This document shows positions 12,581 to 59,967 of a stretch of DNA of 64,000 nt, one piece after another. The stretch comes from an uncultured Bacilli bacterium (GTDB lineage: Bacteria > Bacillota_I > Bacilli_A > RF39 > UBA660): contig CAKPDH010000001.1 of NCBI GenBank assembly GCA_934148845.1, positions 98,939 to 162,938 of the forward strand. The letters run 5' to 3'. The notes beneath the pieces are model-generated. The model saw only the letters and a program-made list of their open reading frames with translations. It did not search any database and was not told where the DNA came from. Position numbers and translations under genes: made by a program. The stretch's first letter is position 1; each line of letters begins with the position of its first letter.

Positions 12581-14014
12581 ATGAAAAACAAAAAGATAAC
12601 AGTAGCTGCACTAATAGTAGCAGTATTAAGTCTTTCAATAGGATTTGCAGCATTTTCAAACAGTTTAAATATTAAAAGTAGTGCGAATGTAAAACCAAGT
12701 GATAAAGACTTTAAAATAGTATTTTCAAAAGAAAGAGATACATTTGTAAGTGGAAATGAAATAATAAATGCAACAGGAGATATTAATGAGAATACAAAAA
12801 AAGGATCAATAAATGATATAGGAGATACATTATATAATCTAGAGACAGAATTTACTACTCCTGGAGAGAGTGTAGAATATAGTTTATATATAAAAAATAT
12901 AGGAGCATATAATGCAGTATTAAATAAACTAGAAATAGAAGAAGCAGAACTAACAAGTGATATAACAGTAGATAACTATTATATAGTAGATAATGGAAGT
13001 GTTAAGTGTTATGCAAAAAAAGATCCACAAAATAAAGCAAATGAAGAATTATTAAAAGAGGCTTGTAATAATATAAAATTAAAAGTAAAACTACAACAAG
13101 AAAGTGAATATATAACAAGTACAAAAGAATTTGATAGTTATGTAATAAATAAAGGAGAAAGTGAGAGTGTTACAGTAACACTAGAATATACAGGAGATAC
13201 ATTAGCTGATACAAATTTTAATGTAGTATTTGGTAGTGTTAAGATGAATTATGCAACAGCAAAGGTAAGTAGTAGTACTCTAGTAGAAGATCAAGTATGT
13301 TTTTATACAGAATTAAATGAAGATAATAGCACATTAAGTATAGCTGGATATAATCCAGAATGTGGTACTGATGTAGTAATACCTGATAGTCTTCCACTAA
13401 CAAGTATAGAAAGCTTAGATACAGAAGCTTGTATTAATGGACTTGTAGCAACAGGAGATTATGACCAAAATTCAGCTACTCAAAGCTGCAGTTTATCAAA
13501 CGAAGATTTATTATATGAATTATCATCAAATAATTTGATGAATACTCTTAAAATTACTAAGAGTACAAATTCTTATTCTGTATCGAAGATAAAAAATAAC
13601 TCATTTGTTGAACTTAATTTAGAAAGCGTAATAATCCCTGGGACAGTAGAGATTATAGGAAGAGAGGCCTTCATTTATAATAATATATCAAGTGTTATTT
13701 TAAATGAGGGAACTAAGACAATTGATTCTTATGCTTTTGCATTAAATAAATTAAAGGAAATAAATATACCAAATAGTGTTGAAACAATAGAGAATTCTGC
13801 ATTTGATTCTAATAATATTCAAATCGTAAGTATAGGGAAGAATATAAATTTTATTGGTGAAAGTGCTTTTGGCAAAAGCAATGAAGAAGGCTATGGACCA
13901 AATAAAATAGAAAGTGTAACTATAAATACAACAAAAGATAAAGTGACAGTAGAAACAAACGTATTTAGCTGGGTATTAGGAAAAAGTGATGCAGATATAA
14001 AATGGGCTGAGTAG
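12581..14014 (+). CDS. Secreted protein with BspA/TpLRR-type leucine-rich repeats and a TasA/camelysin-like (SipW-cognate-type) leader
   Basis: Leader MKNKKITVAALIVAVLSLSIGFAAFSN resembles the TasA ..GGTWAAFND and CalY ..GTFAYFSD cleavage regions. C-terminal about 150 aa are LRR_5-like repeats (IPNSVETIENSAFDSNNIQIVSIG..FIGESAFG). RBS AGGAGG 5 nt before the ATG at 12581; the track start at 12530 is upstream. Confidence 0.6.
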   Translation: MKNKKITVAALIVAVLSLSIGFAAFSNSLNIKSSANVKPSDKDFKIVFSKERDTFVSGNEIINATGDINENTKKGSINDIGDTLYNLETEFTTPGESVEYSLYIKNIGAYNAVLNKLEIEEAELTSDITVDNYYIVDNGSVKCYAKKDPQNKANEELLKEACNNIKLKVKLQQESEYITSTKEFDSYVINKGESESVTVTLEYTGDTLADTNFNVVFGSVKMNYATAKVSSSTLVEDQVCFYTELNEDNSTLSIAGYNPECGTDVVIPDSLPLTSIESLDTEACINGLVATGDYDQNSATQSCSLSNEDLLYELSSNNLMNTLKITKSTNSYSVSKIKNNSFVELNLESVIIPGTVEIIGREAFIYNNISSVILNEGTKTIDSYAFALNKLKEINIPNSVETIENSAFDSNNIQIVSIGKNINFIGESAFGKSNEEGYGPNKIESVTINTTKDKVTVETNVFSWVLGKSDADIKWAE

Positions 14015-17641: not shown

Positions 17642-20600
17642 ATGAACAAATCGAACTTAGTCAAAAAATTGACTATGATATTATTTACATTAGTAGCAAT
17701 CTTTGCTGTAGGATTAACTAATGTAAATGCAGAAACAACAACTGCAGTTGTTGAAGATCGAGATGCATTAGTAAAAAAGATGGATGATAAAACAACAGAT
17801 ATAGTTAGACTTAATAATAATATTGAACTATCAAGCGAATATAATACAACTTTCTCTATTGAAAAGTCAAAAACACTTGATTTAAATGGTCACACTATAA
17901 CTGTACCAGATGGTAAAGAAATTAATTTTTGGTATTATGCAGATGCTGATATTAAAATAATGAATTCTAGCAATAGTAGTTCTGCAAAAATTATTGGTAA
18001 TCATACTGGTTCATCGACCTATTTTTTGTTGCGTGGAGCAATTATTCGTGATGCAGAAAAGGTAAACTTTGAGATTGACGGTGTTGATTTTGAAGTGAAA
18101 AACAGTAATTTTACTACCATTGTTTTTATGAAAAATGGGCAAAAATATGAAAATCTCATTATAAAAAATTCTAATGTTAATGGGAATCAGTACTTATTTT
18201 GGTCTGGTGCTGCTAAAAAAGTTTATTTGGAAAGTATAACTTTAAACCGTGCTGAAGGTGCTGATAGAAATCTATATAGACAACTTAGTAATACTTCTTC
18301 TTTAACTGTTAATGATGTAATTGATGCCAATGCTGTTGTTGAGTATTATCCTAGTCGTGGTGTAAAAGCTACTGCTGATAGAACAGCAATACTTAATACT
18401 TCTGATCTTAATGCTTATTGGGGTCCAATAACAGTTAAATTTGCAAATGGATTTAATGTATCTAATGCTTCTTTAACTGGTAAATATGGTGAAACACCTG
18501 AGGCTAATATTACAATTAAAAATGTTGGTGAAAATAATTTACAAATTAAAAATGTAACAGTATCTGAACCTACAAAATTTGAAATCATTGGACCAACACA
18601 ACCAACAGTAATTGCTGGTACAACAAATACTGATTTTAAAGTAAAAGCAAAAGAAGGACTTTCTGTTGGTAATTATACTGCAACAATTACTGTAACTGAT
18701 ATGGGTGGTAAAACATATACAGCAACAGTTACATTAGTAGTTGAGAAAAAACAATTAGATGGTTTAGGTGCTGGATTTACTAGCAACTGGACTTATGGCG
18801 AAACAGCATTAGAACCTAACATTTCTGGTGTTGATTCACTAGGAGCAGATGAATACAAAGTTGAATATGCTAAAGCTGGTACTGATGATTGGAGTACAAT
18901 TAAACCTACTACAGCAGGAGATTATACAATTAGATTAACTATTACAGGATCTAATTATAAAACTGGTACTGCATCTTCAACGTTTAAGATTTTACCTACT
19001 GAAAAGGAAGTTAAAATTGTTGCTAATTCATCTAGTCATCAATATGATGGAAATGCTTATACTGATAATGGATATAAAATTTACTTTGATGGAACAGAAG
19101 TTACTGATGGTAAATTATTATATGATGATATTATTGGCAATGTAAAAATTAATGGTAGTGTTACTGATGTAGCTGATAATACTACTGTTGAAAACAATTT
19201 AATTGATAGATATAGTTATACAATTACAAATAAAGAAAGTTACAAAAATATTAAGTTAGTAGCTGGTAATATCAAAATCACACCAATTCCAACATCAATA
19301 GTTGTAAAAGCTGATTCAGATACTAAGGTATATGATGGTACTGAATTAACAAAAAATACTTATACATATACTGATGGTGTATTATTAGCTGGTGATACAT
19401 TAGAAGCTACAATTACTGGTAGCCAAAAATTTGTAGGTTCTTCAAATAATACTGTAAACAATGTTAAAGTAAAGAGAGATGGAAAAGATATTACTGATAA
19501 CTATACATTTGGAACTCATACATTTGGAAAACTAACAGTAACAAGTGCAGAACAACCTTTAGCAATTGCAGATCAATATGTAAAAGTTAATGGTTCTATA
19601 TTATTAAGTGATTTAGAACAAGAAGTAACTGGAGATGTAGGAAACATTGATTTTGCTATTAAATCAGGAACAGCACTTACATATGATGCTACAAATGATG
19701 AATATGTAGCAGGAGCAACTGCAGGAGATGTTGTAATGACAGTTACAGCAGTAAAAGTAAACCTTGGTGGAGATGATACACCTGAATGGAAAGAAACATC
19801 AAAAGACTTTACAGTTCATGTTGTAAATAAAGAAAATGTAACAATTACTGGTTTAGAGGATAATCAAGTATTTACTTTTGATAATACTACTAAAACTCCA
19901 TGGGGAACAGGCACAATTACAGTTGAAGATAATAAAGTCAATGTAAATGAATTAGAGATATTTTACAATGGAACTGGTAGCACAACATATAGTAGTAAGT
20001 TTGCTCCAGTAGATGCAGGTACTTATACAATAACTTATAAAGTTAAAGATAGTAATCCTGACTATGTAGGAAGTGTAACTTATGCTTTCACAATTAAGAA
20101 AGCACAATTAAATAAGCCAACTGCTAGTACAACATCATTTGTATATGATGGTACAAGTAAAGGATATAGTTCATTCCATGATACTGAAACATTTGAATTT
20201 ACAGGTACTAATACTGCTACAAATGTAGGTAATTATAGTCTTACAATATCTTTAAAAGATAAAGATAATTATGAGTGGGTTGGTGGTACAACTACTGATG
20301 TAGTTATTAACTGGTCTATTACTCAAGCAACACCTAATTATACAGTACCTACTGGGCTTGTTGGTGTTAAAGGTGATTTCTTAAGAAGCATTGCACTTCC
20401 TTATGGATTTACTTGGAATAATCCTAATGAGTTATTAAATGCTGGAACTCATACTTATAAAGCTACATATACACCTGCAGATACAACAAATTATAAAACA
20501 GTAACAGACATTGATGTAACTGTTGTTGTAAAAAATAAATTTGTTTTAGTAGGAATTGTTAATGGTGGAAATGGTACAATAAGCGTTTCTAGTCTAGAAG

Positions 20601-21391
20601 TATTAGAAGGAGAAAAAGCAGAAGTTGTATTTACACCAGATACTGGTTATATGATTGACAAAGTTCTTGTTGAAGAAACTGAAGTTGAAGTTACTGGTAA
20701 TAAATTAGAACTTACTATGGATGGAAATAAATTAGTTACAGTAAGTTATAAGAAAATACCATTTACAGTAACTGTTAAAGATGTAACTGGTGCTACTGTT
20801 ACTCCAAATGGAGCTGTTAGTGTAAATTATGGTGATAATAAAGAATTCACAATCACAGTTAATAGTGGTTATAAATTAGTTAAAGTTTTAGTAAATGGAA
20901 CTGATAAAACTGCTGATATGGTTGATGATAAATTAACACTTTCAAACATTACTGCTAATATGGAATTAGAAGCAGTTGTAGAAAAAATAGTTTATGAAGT
21001 AACTGAAGGAGCTAATCAAAAATATACAATTACTAAAAATAGTGAAGCTAAATTCAAAATAAATGCTGACTTTAGATTATTTGATGATGGTAAAGTATAT
21101 GTTGATAATGAATTAGTTGATCCTAAAAATTATACAGCAGAATCAGGGAGCACAATAATTACATTAAAGAAGGAATTTGTTGATACATTATCAGTTGGAG
21201 AACATACTTTAAAAGTATTATTCAATGATGGTGGAGAAGCAACAACAAAATTTACTGTAGCAAGAGTAACAGTGCCTACTGATAATCCAAATACTGGAGA
21301 TAATATTGGATTCTATATAATAAGTGGAATCTTATCAATCGTAGGACTTGCTTTAATTGGAATCTTTTATAGAAGAAAACAGACAAATTAA
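17642..21391 (+). CDS. Large cell-wall-anchored surface protein (putative adhesin) with Ig-like/MBG-type repeats, divergent InlB-B-type repeats and a C-terminal NPNTG sorting signal
   Basis: Sec signal peptide (..GLTNVNA|ETT). N-terminal region rich in N/S/G, possibly beta-helical. Multiple repeats of the form GTYTITYKVKDSNPDYVG.. / NYSLTISLKDKDNY.. and GNGTISVSS..GYMIDKVLV.. / TVTPNGAVSVNYGDN..GYKLVKVLVNG. C-terminus ..VPTDNPNTGDNIGFYIISGILSIVGLALIGIFYRRKQTN = sorting motif + TM + basic tail. Confidence 0.7.
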   Translation: MNKSNLVKKLTMILFTLVAIFAVGLTNVNAETTTAVVEDRDALVKKMDDKTTDIVRLNNNIELSSEYNTTFSIEKSKTLDLNGHTITVPDGKEINFWYYADADIKIMNSSNSSSAKIIGNHTGSSTYFLLRGAIIRDAEKVNFEIDGVDFEVKNSNFTTIVFMKNGQKYENLIIKNSNVNGNQYLFWSGAAKKVYLESITLNRAEGADRNLYRQLSNTSSLTVNDVIDANAVVEYYPSRGVKATADRTAILNTSDLNAYWGPITVKFANGFNVSNASLTGKYGETPEANITIKNVGENNLQIKNVTVSEPTKFEIIGPTQPTVIAGTTNTDFKVKAKEGLSVGNYTATITVTDMGGKTYTATVTLVVEKKQLDGLGAGFTSNWTYGETALEPNISGVDSLGADEYKVEYAKAGTDDWSTIKPTTAGDYTIRLTITGSNYKTGTASSTFKILPTEKEVKIVANSSSHQYDGNAYTDNGYKIYFDGTEVTDGKLLYDDIIGNVKINGSVTDVADNTTVENNLIDRYSYTITNKESYKNIKLVAGNIKITPIPTSIVVKADSDTKVYDGTELTKNTYTYTDGVLLAGDTLEATITGSQKFVGSSNNTVNNVKVKRDGKDITDNYTFGTHTFGKLTVTSAEQPLAIADQYVKVNGSILLSDLEQEVTGDVGNIDFAIKSGTALTYDATNDEYVAGATAGDVVMTVTAVKVNLGGDDTPEWKETSKDFTVHVVNKENVTITGLEDNQVFTFDNTTKTPWGTGTITVEDNKVNVNELEIFYNGTGSTTYSSKFAPVDAGTYTITYKVKDSNPDYVGSVTYAFTIKKAQLNKPTASTTSFVYDGTSKGYSSFHDTETFEFTGTNTATNVGNYSLTISLKDKDNYEWVGGTTTDVVINWSITQATPNYTVPTGLVGVKGDFLRSIALPYGFTWNNPNELLNAGTHTYKATYTPADTTNYKTVTDIDVTVVVKNKFVLVGIVNGGNGTISVSSLEVLEGEKAEVVFTPDTGYMIDKVLVEETEVEVTGNKLELTMDGNKLVTVSYKKIPFTVTVKDVTGATVTPNGAVSVNYGDNKEFTITVNSGYKLVKVLVNGTDKTADMVDDKLTLSNITANMELEAVVEKIVYEVTEGANQKYTITKNSEAKFKINADFRLFDDGKVYVDNELVDPKNYTAESGSTIITLKKEFVDTLSVGEHTLKVLFNDGGEATTKFTVARVTVPTDNPNTGDNIGFYIISGILSIVGLALIGIFYRRKQTN

Positions 21392-21944: not shown

Positions 21945-22031
21945 TAACTAAATTAAAAAACACGATAAAATTAAATAAATGTTTTAAAATAAAGAATTTT
22001 ATAGTATAATAAAATTAGAGGAGGAGTGAAT

Positions 22032-23183
22032 ATGTCTAATAATGGCAAAAAAAGTATAATTATTGGAGCAATTTTTGGCATTTTATTGCTTACAATTGTT
22101 ATAATTTTATCTTGGTTTTTAAATCGAAAGTTTGATGTTACTTTTGATTTAGATAACGGTACTAAAAATGAAGTAGTACAAGTTAAATATAATAAAACCA
22201 TAAACAAAAAAAATGTCAAAGATCAAAAAGAGCTAGGTGAATTATTTATAGGCTGGTATGAAGTAGTTGATGTTAAAGATAAAAAAGATATTTTAGCAAA
22301 AAAAGAATTTGATTTTAAAACTAAAATTAATAGAAATGTTAAATTAAAAGCAGTTTATGAACAAAAGCCAAAAACTATTACTATTACATTTGATTCTAAA
22401 GGAGGAAGTAAAGTTGAACCTATTACCATAAATGAAGGTTCAGAATTAATATTACCAAAAAATCCAACTTATAGTGGATACACATTTAAATGTTGGGAGG
22501 ACAAGAATGAAAAACCAATTTACAATAATGTAGTATTAGCAGAAGATACAACTTTATATGCTAAATGGGAAAAAGATGAGCCTAAAAAGTCAAATACTAA
22601 AAAGGATGAGTCTAAAAAGTCAAATACTAAAAAAGAAGATCAAAAAAAAGATAAGCCAAAAGAAGTTGTATATTACTGTGATTCAGGATATGTTTTAGAA
22701 GGAACTAAATGTACTAAAACAGAAAAGAAAATCTCTGAGATTATTTATTCTTGTAGTTCACCTTACAGTTTATCTATAGATGATAAATGTATTGATATTA
22801 CTAAGAAAACGGATTTAGTAAAAGTATGTGCAGAATATAAAGGATATAAAGGAGTAATTGCTCAAGGAAGTCCATTATGTTTCTATCATGATATAGGTCC
22901 AGGTAGTAGTTATCAAGAATGTGTATCTATACATAATAGTCAAGAAGTAGGACAATATAATGGAAGATGCTATGAATTTAAAAAAATGAAAGATGATAAT
23001 AGCAACAATTTAATAATAAGTTCTTGTCCTGAAGGCTATACAGAATTTCGACCATCAACATCAAGTAATCCTGTATGTGGTAAATCTGTAAATGCAAAAA
23101 AAACTTATGCGTGTCCTAGTGGATACCGTTTATCTGGCAAAAATTGTTTAAAGACAGTAACTGTTGATGCTAAGAAAAAATAA
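22032..23183 (+). CDS. Membrane-anchored surface protein with two Listeria-Bacteroides (Flg_new) repeats and a triple Cys-containing repeat
   Basis: N-terminal TM. VTFDLDNG..FIGWYEV and TITFDSKGGSKVEPITINEGS..YSGYTFKCWED..LYAKWE are typical Flg_new repeats. Lys-rich linker (KKSNTKKDE x2). Then three copies of C.SGY.L.G..C (YYCDSGYVLEGTKC; YSCSSPYSLSIDDKC; YACPSGYRLSGKNC). RBS GAGGAGG before the ATG at 22032. Confidence 0.55.
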   Translation: MSNNGKKSIIIGAIFGILLLTIVIILSWFLNRKFDVTFDLDNGTKNEVVQVKYNKTINKKNVKDQKELGELFIGWYEVVDVKDKKDILAKKEFDFKTKINRNVKLKAVYEQKPKTITITFDSKGGSKVEPITINEGSELILPKNPTYSGYTFKCWEDKNEKPIYNNVVLAEDTTLYAKWEKDEPKKSNTKKDESKKSNTKKEDQKKDKPKEVVYYCDSGYVLEGTKCTKTEKKISEIIYSCSSPYSLSIDDKCIDITKKTDLVKVCAEYKGYKGVIAQGSPLCFYHDIGPGSSYQECVSIHNSQEVGQYNGRCYEFKKMKDDNSNNLIISSCPEGYTEFRPSTSSNPVCGKSVNAKKTYACPSGYRLSGKNCLKTVTVDAKKK

Positions 23184-49810: not shown

Positions 49811-49838
49811 TACCAATATTGAATTTTGGTATTTTTTT
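49811..49838 (+). terminator. Terminator after yneF
   Basis: TACCAA-9 nt-TTGGTA followed by T7; overlaps the next promoter. Confidence 0.6.
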
Positions 49839-49846
49839 GTTATAAT
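49819..49846 (+). promoter_or_regulatory. Promoter of the pilin-like LRR gene
   Basis: TTGAAT -35, 16-nt spacer, extended -10 TGtTATAAT. RBS AGAGAGG. Confidence 0.45.
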
Positions 49847-49873
49847 TTATATAGTCGGTTAGAGAGGTAAAAT

Positions 49874-51382
49874 ATGAAAAGAAAAGGATTTACATTAATA
49901 GAACTACTTGCAGTAATAGTAATACTTGCAATAATAGCTTTAATAGCAACTCCAATTATACTTGGTATAATAGAGGATACGAGAAATTCATCAAAAGATG
50001 AAAGTGTAAAATTATATTTAGACACTTTAAAGAAGAGTATAGCATCTGTGCTTGCAACTGATCCAAAATTTGATACACAATATTTAGAATGTGGTGTGAA
50101 TAGTGATAGTAGTGCAGTTTGTAATTATAAAAATATAAAAGTTGAAATTAGTGGTAATACTCCTATATCAGGTAGGATTACTATTGAAAATGGTAAAATT
50201 ATTAGTGCAATAAATTTACAATTTAAAAATGATGATAATATTTATAAATTTGAGAATAATAAATTAGTATTAATGTCTCTTGATGAATTAACTGAAAGCT
50301 GCTTTGTAAGTTTAACTCAAGGTGAAATAAGCGTATATGATACATTTTGTCCCAAAAATATAAAGTTGAGTAAAAATTTGGGATTACCGGTTAGTACAGT
50401 AAAACAAAGTTCGTTTAATAAATCAAAGTGTATGGCATATGCAAAATCTTCTTCTGATGTTAATGATATTATGACAGAAGAAGAATTGTGTGCTGCTATT
50501 GCTAGTAATTATGAAAATTTTGATACCGCAATAAAAATTAAAGTTGGAGATGTAACATTTGAAAGAACTAAAGACAAGTATAAAATATCAAAAATAGGAA
50601 ATTCTGCTTTTGTAGGTAATGGAATAACAAATATAGAACTATCAGATAATATAGTTGAAATAGGTGCAAATGCATTTTCAGGAAATAGTTTAACAAGTAT
50701 CAAAATTCCAAATAGCATAACAAGTATAGGAGATAATGCATTTTCAAATAATAAACTTACAAACATAATAATTCCAAATAGTATAACAAATATAGGTGAA
50801 TCTGTTTTTGAAGAAAATGAGTTAATAAGTGTCGAAATTCCAAATAGTGTAACAAGTATAGGTGATTATGCATTTAGCGATAATAAACTTACAAATGTAA
50901 GTATTCCAGATAGTGTAACAAATATAGGTAGGGAAGCATTTTCAAATAATAAGCTTAAAAGTGTAACTGTTCCAAAGAATTTAACAACAATGGGATATTA
51001 TATATTTTCTAACAATAAAATATCAACTGTGAAAATATCTGATGGTGTTAAGGAAATTAGCTTCGGAATGTTTTATAAAAATGAACTTACAAGTGTAAGT
51101 ATTCCAAATAGCGTAACTAGAATAGAGACTGATGCATTTAATTATAATAATATAACTAATGTAGAAATTGGATCAGGAATTGAATATTTAGGAACACGTT
51201 GTTTTTATAATGATAAAGAAGTTGATGAGAATAATAATATAACGTATGGCCCAAATGAAATTAAAGTATTTAAAATACATAAGACAAAAGATGAAAGCAT
51301 ATTTAAAAATGGTAACTATAATAAAACTGTTTTCATAGGTAGCGATGGTAAGAGTAATTCAAATATAATTTGGGATAGTTAA
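49874..51382 (+). CDS. Type IV pilin-like (class III signal peptide) protein with C-terminal BspA/TpLRR-type leucine-rich repeats
   Basis: N-terminus MKRKG|FTLIELLAVIVILAIIALIATPIILG: basic leader, Gly-Phe cleavage site, Glu+5 and hydrophobic helix of prepilins. C-terminal about 250 aa consist of about 9 tandem LRR_5-like units (IPNSITSIGDNAFSNNKLTNI...). Paralogous C-terminal domain to the 12581 gene. Confidence 0.65.
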   Translation: MKRKGFTLIELLAVIVILAIIALIATPIILGIIEDTRNSSKDESVKLYLDTLKKSIASVLATDPKFDTQYLECGVNSDSSAVCNYKNIKVEISGNTPISGRITIENGKIISAINLQFKNDDNIYKFENNKLVLMSLDELTESCFVSLTQGEISVYDTFCPKNIKLSKNLGLPVSTVKQSSFNKSKCMAYAKSSSDVNDIMTEEELCAAIASNYENFDTAIKIKVGDVTFERTKDKYKISKIGNSAFVGNGITNIELSDNIVEIGANAFSGNSLTSIKIPNSITSIGDNAFSNNKLTNIIIPNSITNIGESVFEENELISVEIPNSVTSIGDYAFSDNKLTNVSIPDSVTNIGREAFSNNKLKSVTVPKNLTTMGYYIFSNNKISTVKISDGVKEISFGMFYKNELTSVSIPNSVTRIETDAFNYNNITNVEIGSGIEYLGTRCFYNDKEVDENNNITYGPNEIKVFKIHKTKDESIFKNGNYNKTVFIGSDGKSNSNIIWDS

Positions 51383-51398
51383 TATAAAATATAATAAT

Positions 51399-51418
51399 AA
51401 AGTGGCTAATGCCACTTT
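51399..51418. terminator. Bidirectional hairpin between the pilin-like gene and clpP
   Basis: AAAGTGGC-taat-GCCACTTT. Confidence 0.5.
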
Positions 51419-51419
51419 A

Positions 51420-51989
51420 TTAATTTATTATTTTATCTATAATTCCATATTCTAAAGCTTCTAAAGCTGACATAAAATTGTCTCTATCTGTATCATGTTC
51501 TATTATTTCTATATTCTTGCCTGTGTTATCAGCAAGTATTTTATTTAATATGCTTTTAGTTTTCAAAATATGTTCTGCAGCTATTTTTATTTCTGTAGCT
51601 TGGCCTTGTGCACCACCAAGAGGTTGATGTATCATAACTTCAGCATTCGGAAGTATAAATCTTTTTCCCTTTTTTCCACTGCTAAGTAAAAAAGCCGCCA
51701 TTGAAGCACATATACCCATTCCTATTGTTGAAACATCACTTTTTATATAATTCATTGTATCATAGATTGCCATTCCATCTGTAACAGAACCACCTGGTGA
51801 GTTAATATAAATATTTATAGTTTCATTTCCTAATGAGTCTAAATAAAGAAGTTGAGCAATAACAGAATTAGCGCTTTCATTATTAATCTCACCATTAATA
51901 ATTATAATTCTGTCTTTTAAAAGTCTTGAGTATATATCATACGCTCTTTCTGTATTGTTTACTTTATCGATTACTGTTGGAATTATCAT
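51420..51989 (-). CDS. clpP: ATP-dependent Clp protease proteolytic subunit
   Basis: ..[19 protein letters not shown].., catalytic Ser region [16 protein letters not shown], His region ..IHQPLGG..; 189 aa. Confidence 0.9.
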
Positions 51990-58554: not shown

Positions 58555-59967
58555 ATGGAAGAATTAAAAAATTATTTTGAAACATTAAATATAGAATATA
58601 CTGAAGATGGAAATAGATTAATTGAAACACTTATTGAAACACTATCTAATCCTAATATAGATGAAGATATAATAAAAATAATCCTTGTTGCTGCTCTTAA
58701 TAAAAAAATAATTTCGTCAGAACAATTTACAAAATACTTTGAAGAAGCAGCACGAATAAAAGATCAGCAGCTAGCACGGGAAGCTCAAGCAAATGCAGCA
58801 GATGCAACTCCAGCACAGGAAGCTCAAGCGAATGCAGCAGATGCAACTCCAGCACAGGAAGCTCAAGCAGATGCAGCAGATGCAACACCAGCACAGGAAG
58901 CTCAAGCAGATACAGCAGATGCAACACCAGCACAGGAAGCTCAAGCAGATGCAACCCCAGCACAAGAAGCTCAAGCGAATGCAGCAGAGGCAACTCCAGC
59001 ACAAGAAGCTCAAGCAGATGCAGCAGATGCAACTCCAGCACAGGAGGCTCAAGCAGATGCAGCAGATGCAACCCCAGCACAGGAAGCTCAAGCAGATGAA
59101 AAAAGAGATAAAACAAACAAGTCTGTTTGTAGAAACAAAACGTTTGGGAGTACGCTTTTAAAATCTCTTCCAGGTGCTGTTATTGTAGGTGGAATTTTAC
59201 TTGGTACTATATCAGTAGCTCCTATAACTATACCATATGCCTATGCTTTGGGTAAGCTAACTATAATTGGTGGAACTCTAGCAGGTGGTATTGTATCTTA
59301 TCTAGTATGTAAACGTTTATCAAATACAAAATTATATAAGAATATTTATAAAGGCAAAATTAGTAAAATTACTACTGATGAGTCAAAAGAAATAGAATTA
59401 GAAGCAGAAAAAACTATGACTGAAATAAGAAAAATGTTAGTAGACCCTTCAAAGGATAACTATAGGCTTCAAATTAGTTTAATTAAATATAAAAATCAAT
59501 GTGAATTACTTGAAAAAAGAATAGATATGAAAAAGAATCAAAAAGTAGCAAAAGGGGATAAAATATTACAATCCTTAAGTATACTTGCTTTAGATAGCAT
59601 AAGAAAAAATATGCAAAAAAACTTAGATGAAGCAAATTTATTACTTGCAAAAGCTGAAGAAAAAAGAGAAGGCCCATCTCGTCTTAATAAATTAAATACT
59701 AAGCTACAAGAAGTTAATGAAAACATTAGCAACATAAGACAAGCAAGCATTTCAGATAATACGGGACACTTGTCTAGTGAGGAAAAAAGCAAAAATGTAA
59801 GTAGCTATTTAAAACTTAGTATTAAATCTTCTGGATTAGAATTTATTAGAAATGCAAAAATTAGAAATATTAGGCTAACACAAAGTGTATATAATTTTTT
59901 TAATATTAAAATTAGAAGAGAATTTAAAGCTTTAGCTTCAAAATTTGATAATGCAAGACATAGATAA
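58555..59967 (+). CDS. Tandem-repeat (PAQEAQA[DN]AADAT)n membrane protein with C-terminal coiled coil (hypothetical)
   Basis: No signal peptide. About 70-aa N-terminal domain, about 10 x 11-aa Ala/Gln/Asp-rich repeats, two TM helices (GAVIVGGILLGTISVAPITIPYAYALGKLTIIGGTLAGGIVSYLV), then about 230 aa K/E-rich coiled coil. RBS GTGAGTGAGG. Confidence 0.5.
   Translation: MEELKNYFETLNIEYTEDGNRLIETLIETLSNPNIDEDIIKIILVAALNKKIISSEQFTKYFEEAARIKDQQLAREAQANAADATPAQEAQANAADATPAQEAQADAADATPAQEAQADTADATPAQEAQADATPAQEAQANAAEATPAQEAQADAADATPAQEAQADAADATPAQEAQADEKRDKTNKSVCRNKTFGSTLLKSLPGAVIVGGILLGTISVAPITIPYAYALGKLTIIGGTLAGGIVSYLVCKRLSNTKLYKNIYKGKISKITTDESKEIELEAEKTMTEIRKMLVDPSKDNYRLQISLIKYKNQCELLEKRIDMKKNQKVAKGDKILQSLSILALDSIRKNMQKNLDEANLLLAKAEEKREGPSRLNKLNTKLQEVNENISNIRQASISDNTGHLSSEEKSKNVSSYLKLSIKSSGLEFIRNAKIRNIRLTQSVYNFFNIKIRREFKALASKFDNARHR
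58775..59097 (+). repeat. 33-bp tandem repeat array (about 9.8 units, one unit shortened to 24 bp) inside the coding sequence
   Basis: Unit GCACAGGAAGCTCAAGC(A/G)(A/G)ATGCAGCAGATGCAAC(T/A/C)CCA with a few substitutions. Local GC is far above the window average. Confidence 0.9.

Follow-up and report, generated by a model that had tools for sequence, protein, structure and literature searches.

A modular type IV pilin gene with a BspA-type leucine-rich repeat cargo in an uncultured human-gut bacterium

A gene encoding a type IV pilin joined to a leucine-rich repeat (LRR) domain of the BspA type was found in a 64,000-nucleotide stretch of contig CAKPDH010000001.1 (hereafter the window; GC content 25.3%), which derives from an uncultured Bacilli bacterium. 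The gene, at 49874-51382, had been singled out in an earlier note on the same DNA as an orphan type IV pilin-like gene fused to a BspA-type LRR domain, and the fusion itself was upheld: the N-terminal 135 residues are homologous to stand-alone pilins, and the repeats are assigned to LRR_5 by sequence as well as by predicted fold. Modular pilins have been defined as proteins that combine the IPR012902 motif with a domain that is not specific to type IV pili (Raynaud et al., 2021; PMC8179133). Here, N_methyl and LRR_5 were found in one polypeptide, in which a complete pilin is followed by a graft joined through a linker. The reading that we favour, and regard as probable, is that of a modular type IV pilin that is incorporated in a filament and carries its BspA-type LRR cargo as a pilus-displayed adhesin, with putative processing, incorporation, tip location and adhesin function. 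The features on which this reading is built are collected in Table 1.

The N-terminus of the protein has the appearance of a class III signal. A basic leader of five residues, MKRKG, is followed by FTLIELLAVIVILAIIALIATP, so that the putative cleavage site reads MKRKG/FTLIE, with Gly-1, Phe+1 and Glu+5, and with a proline at position 22 of the mature protein. The signal, for which the earlier note had pointed to Phe+1 and Glu+5, exceeded the curated cutoffs of two models, namely N_methyl PF07963 from Pfam (residues 2-25, 32.3 bits against a cutoff of 21.2) and TIGR02532 from NCBIfam (33.1 bits against 16.3). Across 18 aligned pilin-LRR proteins, whose overall identity falls to 32-40%, Gly-1, Phe+1, T7, L8, Glu+5 (E10) and Pro22 (P27) were invariant. 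Furthermore, this was the sole class III leader at the start of an open reading frame (ORF) in the 64 kb, as judged by a six-frame scan that included a relaxed -1 position.

Homology to pilins runs through the globular domain, and residues 1-135 are, on alignment, a complete pilin. They are 43-50% identical to stand-alone pilins, over 75-99% of the length, among the matches listed in a search with residues 1-140; this set does not include the orthologues of the gene (P0001-P0012), whose modules are ~97-100% identical. The stand-alone relatives measure ~100-230 aa, mostly ~133 aa, and one of them is called PilA by JGI. They stop at the equivalent of residues ~130-137, which is where the graft begins, and Cys73, Cys83, Gly94, Pro97 and Gly100 are invariant between them and the module. 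When a profile of the pilin module was compared with the PDB, ~20 solved type IV pilins were matched through alpha1 and essentially nothing else, including MshA (E = 1.5e-08), Streptococcus sanguinis PilE1, Thermus thermophilus PilA4, PAK pilin, gonococcal pilin, GspG and PpdD. The AlphaFold2 (AF2) model of the whole protein, computed from the alignment of 18 sequences and with a mean predicted local distance difference test (pLDDT) score of 75.6, contains a helix that spans residues 8-62 and, within 70-133, the strands of a small beta-sheet; the same topology was obtained when the pilin module was modelled alone (pLDDT 82.5), and fold searches with the module were weak.

These data bear on the suggestion that the N-terminus is an ordinary Sec signal or a transmembrane anchor whose likeness to a class III signal is accidental, in a proteome that is AT-rich in its coding and rich in Ile and Leu. 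Low-GC genomes do abound in Ile/Leu/Lys N-termini, and the weak fold searches fit this suggestion, but two independent curated models above threshold, the constancy of G-F-T-L-I-E and Pro22 among relatives of 30-40% identity, the single occurrence of the motif at an ORF start, the extension of homology into the globular domain and the almost exclusive matching of pilins in the PDB make it extremely improbable, and the sequence effectively refutes it.

Downstream of the pilin module, a linker and cap region with cysteines at positions 143, 159, 186 and 206 leads to the repeats. Helices are predicted at 183-215, and the segment 136-237 as a whole is poorly defined in the AF2 model, with low confidence. 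The repeats that follow match LRR_5 (PF13306) with E = 8e-58 and 194 bits, against a Pfam cutoff of 27.7, and conform to the unit consensus LT[NS][VI]xIP[ND]S[VI]TxIGxxAFxxN[KE]. Ten 'AF' motifs are spaced exactly 22 residues apart, from F245 to F443, and the count of nine full units plus a half-unit agrees with the estimate of about nine tandem repeats made earlier. At the DNA level, the array has a period of 66/132 nt with 67-84% matches. A structure prediction had also been proposed for the C-terminal domain; the solenoid at 240-450 was modelled with confidence (pLDDT above 90), and it matches solved LRR_5 proteins, since a Foldseek search with the whole model gave, via the LRR, a probability of 1.00 to five surface proteins of gut bacteria (4fd0, 4fdw, 4fs7, 4h09 and 4gt6), to the adhesin PcpA of pneumococci (4cp6) and to TpLRR (6mlx). 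The protein closes with a C-terminal cap that ends in ...NNITYGPNEIKVFKIHKT...SNIIWDS.

The LRR domain is not confined to pilins. A relationship with the C-terminal part of the protein encoded at 12581-14014 in the window had been proposed, and it proved real but moderate, with 36% identity over the C-terminal 154 aa (E = 3e-19) and a second alignment that covers the cap and the insert (E = 3e-08). A much closer relative of the cassette was found at a third locus, between ltaS and PFOR, which encodes P0013/P0015 (627/628 aa). Residues 143-502 of the window protein are 58% identical to residues 225-627 of P0013, and the similarity starts exactly at Cys143/Cys225. The N-terminus of P0013 is not a pilin; this protein and the 12.5-kb paralogue align end to end, including their N-terminal module (E = 5e-37). 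The idea that one LRR module is deployed on different export devices thus gained support, since the same cassette is found on a non-pilin carrier and the junction at Cys143 is sharp. DNA identity between the pilin-LRR gene and the P0013 gene is ~70% close to the junction and increases to 92-94% over codons 405-480. The final 60 residues of P0010, a pilin-LRR allele, are the same as those of P0013 (L041, 10001-11884; 100% identity), as compared with 83% for the window allele, suggesting recent exchange or gene conversion between the paralogous loci. Taken at the level of sequence, the data point to an ongoing exchange of the LRR cassette between pilin genes and genes of the second carrier.

This second carrier, here called carrier B (residues 1-235 of the 12.5-kb paralogue; family members P0427-P0576), comprises 931 representative clusters, and the module occupies the N-terminus in all cases. 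Of the top matches, about half are proteins of 212-238 aa that stand alone, and the others bear C-terminal cargo, including LRR_5, DUF6273 and DUF285. Cargo seen on the pilin carrier family includes LRR_5, DUF6273 and Dockerin_1, so that this family would be a general scaffold. Members of the carrier B family have a hydrophobic leader followed by a nearly invariant LGFAAFS, an FTxPGQxVxYxFY motif and a conserved Cys pair. No relative of carrier B was found in Pfam or NCBIfam, or in the PDB with a 30-sequence profile. The 'SipW-like leader' that had been attributed to the paralogue found no support in any model: the SipW-cognate model TIGR04088, Peptidase_M73 (PF12389) and TasA structures were matched neither by the paralogue nor by four stand-alone members or 42 family members, and these negative Pfam, NCBIfam and PDB profile searches leave a SipW-dependent TasA/camelysin identity for carrier B unsupported. 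The GFAAFS motif loosely recalls the N-termini of TasA and CalY, a likeness that we take as an unconfirmed lead and nothing else.

Orthologues of the pilin-LRR gene are intact, 82-99% identical and found in the same synteny (UPF0154, pilin-LRR, clpP(-), PRK, gap). The exact protein is present on 11 contigs, including one of 340 kb from a Hadza human-gut metagenome with ~153x coverage. Orthologue sizes are 480, 502 and 525 aa, and the 480-aa form lacks exactly one 22-residue unit. Beyond the 12 orthologues, 25 of the 120 top LRR-similar clusters carry N_methyl. Selection was assessed by comparing the window gene with one orthologue from a genome whose neighbouring genes are at least 99% identical (synonymous divergence, dS, 0.03-0.08). 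The ratio of nonsynonymous to synonymous divergence (dN/dS) was 0.41 for the whole gene, with clear differences along its length. Protein identity, dN/dS and dS were 97%, 0.15 and 0.10 in the pilin module (residues 1-140); 90%, 0.58 and 0.11 in the linker/cap (141-240); 77%, 0.46 and 0.32 in the LRR (241-450); and 83%, 0.26 and 0.36 in the C-cap (451-502). The LRR dS is three to four times that of the flanks, and the raised dS in the LRR and the C-cap fits an import of sequence by recombination, although repeat misalignment could account for part of it. The pilin module is under strong purifying selection, and its conservation while the LRR diverges suggests that the globular pilin domain matters in itself and is not a mere membrane anchor. 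The pilin-LRR gene is thus a stable, selected gene in a prevalent uncultured human-gut bacterium.

As to the wider meaning of the shared cassette, a two-scaffold system of surface display in this gut lineage may tentatively be envisaged. A recombining pool of cassettes (BspA-type LRR, DUF6273 and others) would be mounted either on a type IV pilin or on the ~220-aa carrier B, which could itself be a polymerising surface subunit, and gene conversion together with gain and loss of repeats would generate strain-specific adhesive or antigenic variation. We consider this scenario possible, though somewhat doubtful.

The other genes of the window are housekeeping genes or genes for surface proteins, and the housekeeping set includes those for MreCD, LeuRS, GatCAB, AsnRS, Tex, RNase J, S4, ThyA, DHFR, EzrA, ThrRS, rubrerythrin, ClpP, GAPDH, RuvAB and DnaE. 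Housekeeping genes likewise surround the more distant pilin-LRR genes, each of which stands alone, and the short pilin genes of the ~25% GC clade are solitary, too. In this clade, T2SSF (746-871 aa) and a bifunctional PilD (A24_N_bact plus Peptidase_A24) form a two-gene unit that follows dnaG-sigA-trmK-yqfQ, and the T2SSF protein has a Lys/Glu-rich N-terminal extension of ~400 residues (L015 32-2329; also L020, L024, L028 and L042). Neither an ATPase nor a pilin gene was seen adjoining the T2SSF-PilD pair in the clade relatives, nor was an ATPase seen linked to pilins of the N_methyl type. L015 and L042, two loci of a single species, each carry T2SSF-PilD and, 7 kb downstream on that contig, the pilin-LRR gene, with alleles of 529 and 660 aa. 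Judged by these domain matches, the clade has a prepilin peptidase and a platform protein. Since pilin genes and T2SSF-PilD are all scattered in the clade, the term 'orphan', applied to the gene in the earlier note, is right as far as its solitary position goes and misleading if taken to mean something unusual, for this is the normal state of pilin genes in the clade.

In one relative, a Tad-type locus was observed (L038, 12586-17557) with two TadE-like genes, a ParA/TadZ-like gene, T2SSE and two T2SSF genes. It lies 2 kb downstream of a solitary gene for a 133-aa N_methyl pilin, and type IV filaments of two kinds may therefore exist in the clade.

The size of the clade T2SSF is relevant to a different assignment, in which the protein would be a minor pilin of a ComG-type competence pseudopilus or of some other non-adhesive type IV filament, the LRR serving, for example, in partner capture or cell-cell recognition. 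ComGB is far smaller than the 746-871 aa of the clade protein. A weak ComGD-like match over residues 4-126 and weaker matches to ComGC, ComGE and ComGF do lend this assignment some colour, and Com pili are described as the most widespread type IV filament in monoderms (PMC7212644, PMC12153270). Nevertheless, all Com models stay far under their cutoffs, and a ComG or type II secretion system (T2SS) pseudopilin was rejected on the NCBIfam scores (ComGD 30 bits against 70, ComGF 20.5 against 80, ComGC 19.9 against 75, GspG 22.2 against 88.85 and GspH 17 against 80). The best relatives of the module are instead PilA-like stand-alone pilins, and an origin in competence or another non-adhesive filament appears quite improbable.

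In the mechanism that we propose for the modular pilin, a prepilin peptidase would remove the MKRKG leader, and Phe1 would then be N-methylated. Together, alpha1 and a small beta-domain with a disulfide bond (residues 6-135) would act as the pilin subunit, to be built into a type IV filament by an apparatus whose genes lie at another place in the genome. The segment 136-228, a flexible linker with a Cys-capped region, would join this subunit to the ten-turn LRR solenoid and its C-cap, and the bulky LRR cargo would most likely sit at the tip of the pilus, as proposed for other modular pilins. There, the LRR could form an adhesive filament end that binds host or microbial surface molecules in the gut, as characterised members of the family suggest. 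Finally, the mobile effector cassette would recombine with carrier B paralogues and gain or lose whole repeats, resulting in surface variation at the strain level.

Several observations weigh against this proposal. The earlier statement that no pilus biogenesis genes flank the gene holds for the whole 64-kb window, in which no T2SSE, T2SSF or Peptidase_A24 gene was found, and the pilin-LRR gene was inside a pilus operon in none of seven genomic contexts. The evidence for T2SSF-PilD is at the level of the lineage: three homologues of the PilD of L015, chosen for their long contigs, all belong to other clade members, and none derives from a sample in which the pilin-LRR gene occurs. No prepilin peptidase, assembly ATPase, platform protein or major pilin could be assigned to the organism that harbours the window gene. 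The low confidence of the linker in the AF2 model weakens the placement at the tip rather than along the shaft. The identical cargo also occurs on a non-pilin carrier, so that it may need only surface exposure and not a pilus, and a literature search found no experimentally studied LRR-pilin.

The earlier note had left the choice between a large minor pilin or tip adhesin whose pilus genes lie elsewhere and a surface protein anchored by a pseudopilin. This interpretation is supported; the former option is favoured and the latter is its main rival. In the latter case, no filament would be formed, and the class III signal with alpha1 would do no more than export the LRR and hold it at the membrane or surface. 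The protein would then resemble those archaeal proteins that have class III signals but do not form filaments. The solitary position of this and other pilin-like genes of the clade, the T2SSF-PilD pair of the relatives with neither ATPase nor pilins beside it, and the occurrence of the cargo on carrier B, where surface exposure would be enough, are all in keeping with such an anchor. An anchor would not, however, need the whole globular pilin domain, which has been kept with its invariant Cys pair and its homology to stand-alone pilins under the constraint described above, and the conservation of the T2SSF platform beside PilD in the clade implies filament assembly. We thus hold an anchor without a filament to be rather unlikely, and retain the modular pilin incorporated in a filament as the preferred reading.

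Table 1. Features of the pilin-LRR gene and of its paralogue in the window (positions are those of the window; residues are those of the respective protein).
Feature	Position	Strand	Basis
Promoter-like site: TTGAAT, 16-nt spacer, TG-extended TATAAT	49819..49846	+	10/12 consensus matches
Ribosome-binding site GAGAGG	49862..49867	+	6 nt before ATG, read from sequence
Complete modular-pilin coding sequence, 502 aa plus stop	49874..51382	+	ATG start; Pfam/NCBIfam domain matches
Leader peptide MKRKG, predicted prepilin-peptidase cut after Gly5	49874..49888	+	N_methyl, TIGR02532; conserved in homologues; putative cleavage
Mature pilin module, residues 6-135: hydrophobic alpha1, Glu+5, Pro22, Cys73-Cys83 pair, predicted beta-sheet	49889..50278	+	AF2 and homology
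Linker and effector N-terminal cap, residues 136-228	50279..50557	+	Homology to P0013 and 12.5-kb paralogue starts at Cys143
Cassette junction, Cys143	50300-50302	+	Sharp onset of homology to non-pilin LRR proteins
BspA-type LRR_5 solenoid, ten 22-residue units, residues 229-448	50558..51217	+	Pfam, unit table, DNA period, AF2, Foldseek
C-terminal cap, residues 449-502	51218..51379	+	Common to non-pilin LRR paralogues
Bidirectional intrinsic-terminator-like hairpin, common to convergent clpP	51395..51422	no strand	12-bp stem, T-runs on both strands
Paralogue, 477 aa: carrier B (residues 1-235, 12581-13285), then Cys-cap, LRR_5 and C-cap effector	12581..14014	+	Alignment

The gene had been credited with its own promoter and terminator. 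A promoter-like site and a strong hairpin are indeed present, and both calls are consensus matches, which are no proof of function; promoter-like sites are common in this AT-rich DNA, with 32 seen in the region against 17.9 expected. The hairpin downstream of the gene has a folding energy of -17 kcal/mol (z = -4.7), and none of 200 shuffled sequences folded equally well. The folding of a weak hairpin directly upstream was not significant.

Several surface proteins cluster at 12-23 kb of the window. Among them is a 385-aa membrane-anchored protein (22026-23183) with Listeria-Bacteroides (Flg_new) repeats and a Cys-rich C-terminal half. A 1249-aa surface protein (17642-21391) has a signal peptide, weak matches to MBG and Ig-like repeats, and a C-terminus (...NPNTGD, a hydrophobic stretch and RRKQTN) that looks like a variant sortase sorting signal. 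Elsewhere, at 58555-59967, a 470-aa protein has approximately ten tandem ATPAQEAQA[ND]AAD-like units, unusually GC-rich for the genome, and then transmembrane segments; no Pfam match to the protein was found in the orthologous loci.

Modular pilins have been put forward as an explanation for the many functions that simple type IV pili gain. More than 1,200 of them, in 264 architectures, have been catalogued (PMC8179133), and a 2023 review sees the attachment of adhesive domains to pilins as a 'cut and paste' strategy in wide use. Those with von Willebrand factor A (vWA) and lectin domains are the only types studied, and the BspA-LRR type is frequent in databases: IPR012902-IPR026906 is the seventh most common architecture in Dataset S1 of PMC8179133, with 18 proteins and 6 more that have two LRR entries, and the text of that paper states that the BspA-type LRR domain has 'no clear function'. 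In the gene described here, the LRR cargo appears to act as an exchangeable cassette that is common to a second display scaffold, providing a concrete case of the way in which the targets of adhesion diversify in gut commensals. If the two-scaffold scenario is true, it would entail that a human commensal varies from strain to strain in its adhesive or antigenic properties, and the carrier B family is flagged as worth a structure.

Regarding its cargo, the window protein belongs by repeat family and predicted fold with BspA of Tannerella forsythia, PcpA of Streptococcus pneumoniae, TpLRR, LrrG/HupY and the structures 4fd0, 4fdw, 4fs7, 4h09 and 4gt6. The match to the NCBIfam model adhesin_HupY is partial (122 bits against a cutoff of 1250), and the protein is not an equivalog. 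BspA-type LRR surface proteins generally have Sec signals and are held at the surface by lipoprotein, choline-binding, LPXTG or type IX secretion system (T9SS) anchoring, whereas the window protein uses a pilin module for export. Among pilus-associated proteins, PilY1/PilC tip adhesins differ in that PilY1 does not belong to the pilins. Some bulky minor pilins (CofB, TcpB, GspK and ComZ) are also comparable, although the extra domains of CofB and GspK are system-specific and the LRR of the window protein is generic.

The closest studied parallels are PilB (vWA) and PilC (lectin) of S. sanguinis, which likewise come from a monoderm and have a class III signal and a small complete pilin with a bulky C-terminal domain grafted through a linker. 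PilB is a pilus adhesin, probably located at the tip (PMC8179133); a tip location has been proposed, and the adhesin function of PilB is proven (PMC9934059). In contrast, the cargo of the window protein is a BspA-type LRR, its gene is solitary among housekeeping genes, and it is known from sequence alone. The same domain architecture is found in the modular pilins of the IPR012902-IPR026906 set, from which the window protein stands apart by its origin in a gut lineage of ~25% GC and by its dissection into pilin, Cys-cap, ten units and C-cap. The architecture, catalogued in 2021, is not new, and the gene is a further example of it. What is added here is that the modules are clearly delimited, that there is evidence for an exchange of the cassette with a second carrier, and that pilus genes lie scattered in a gut clade.

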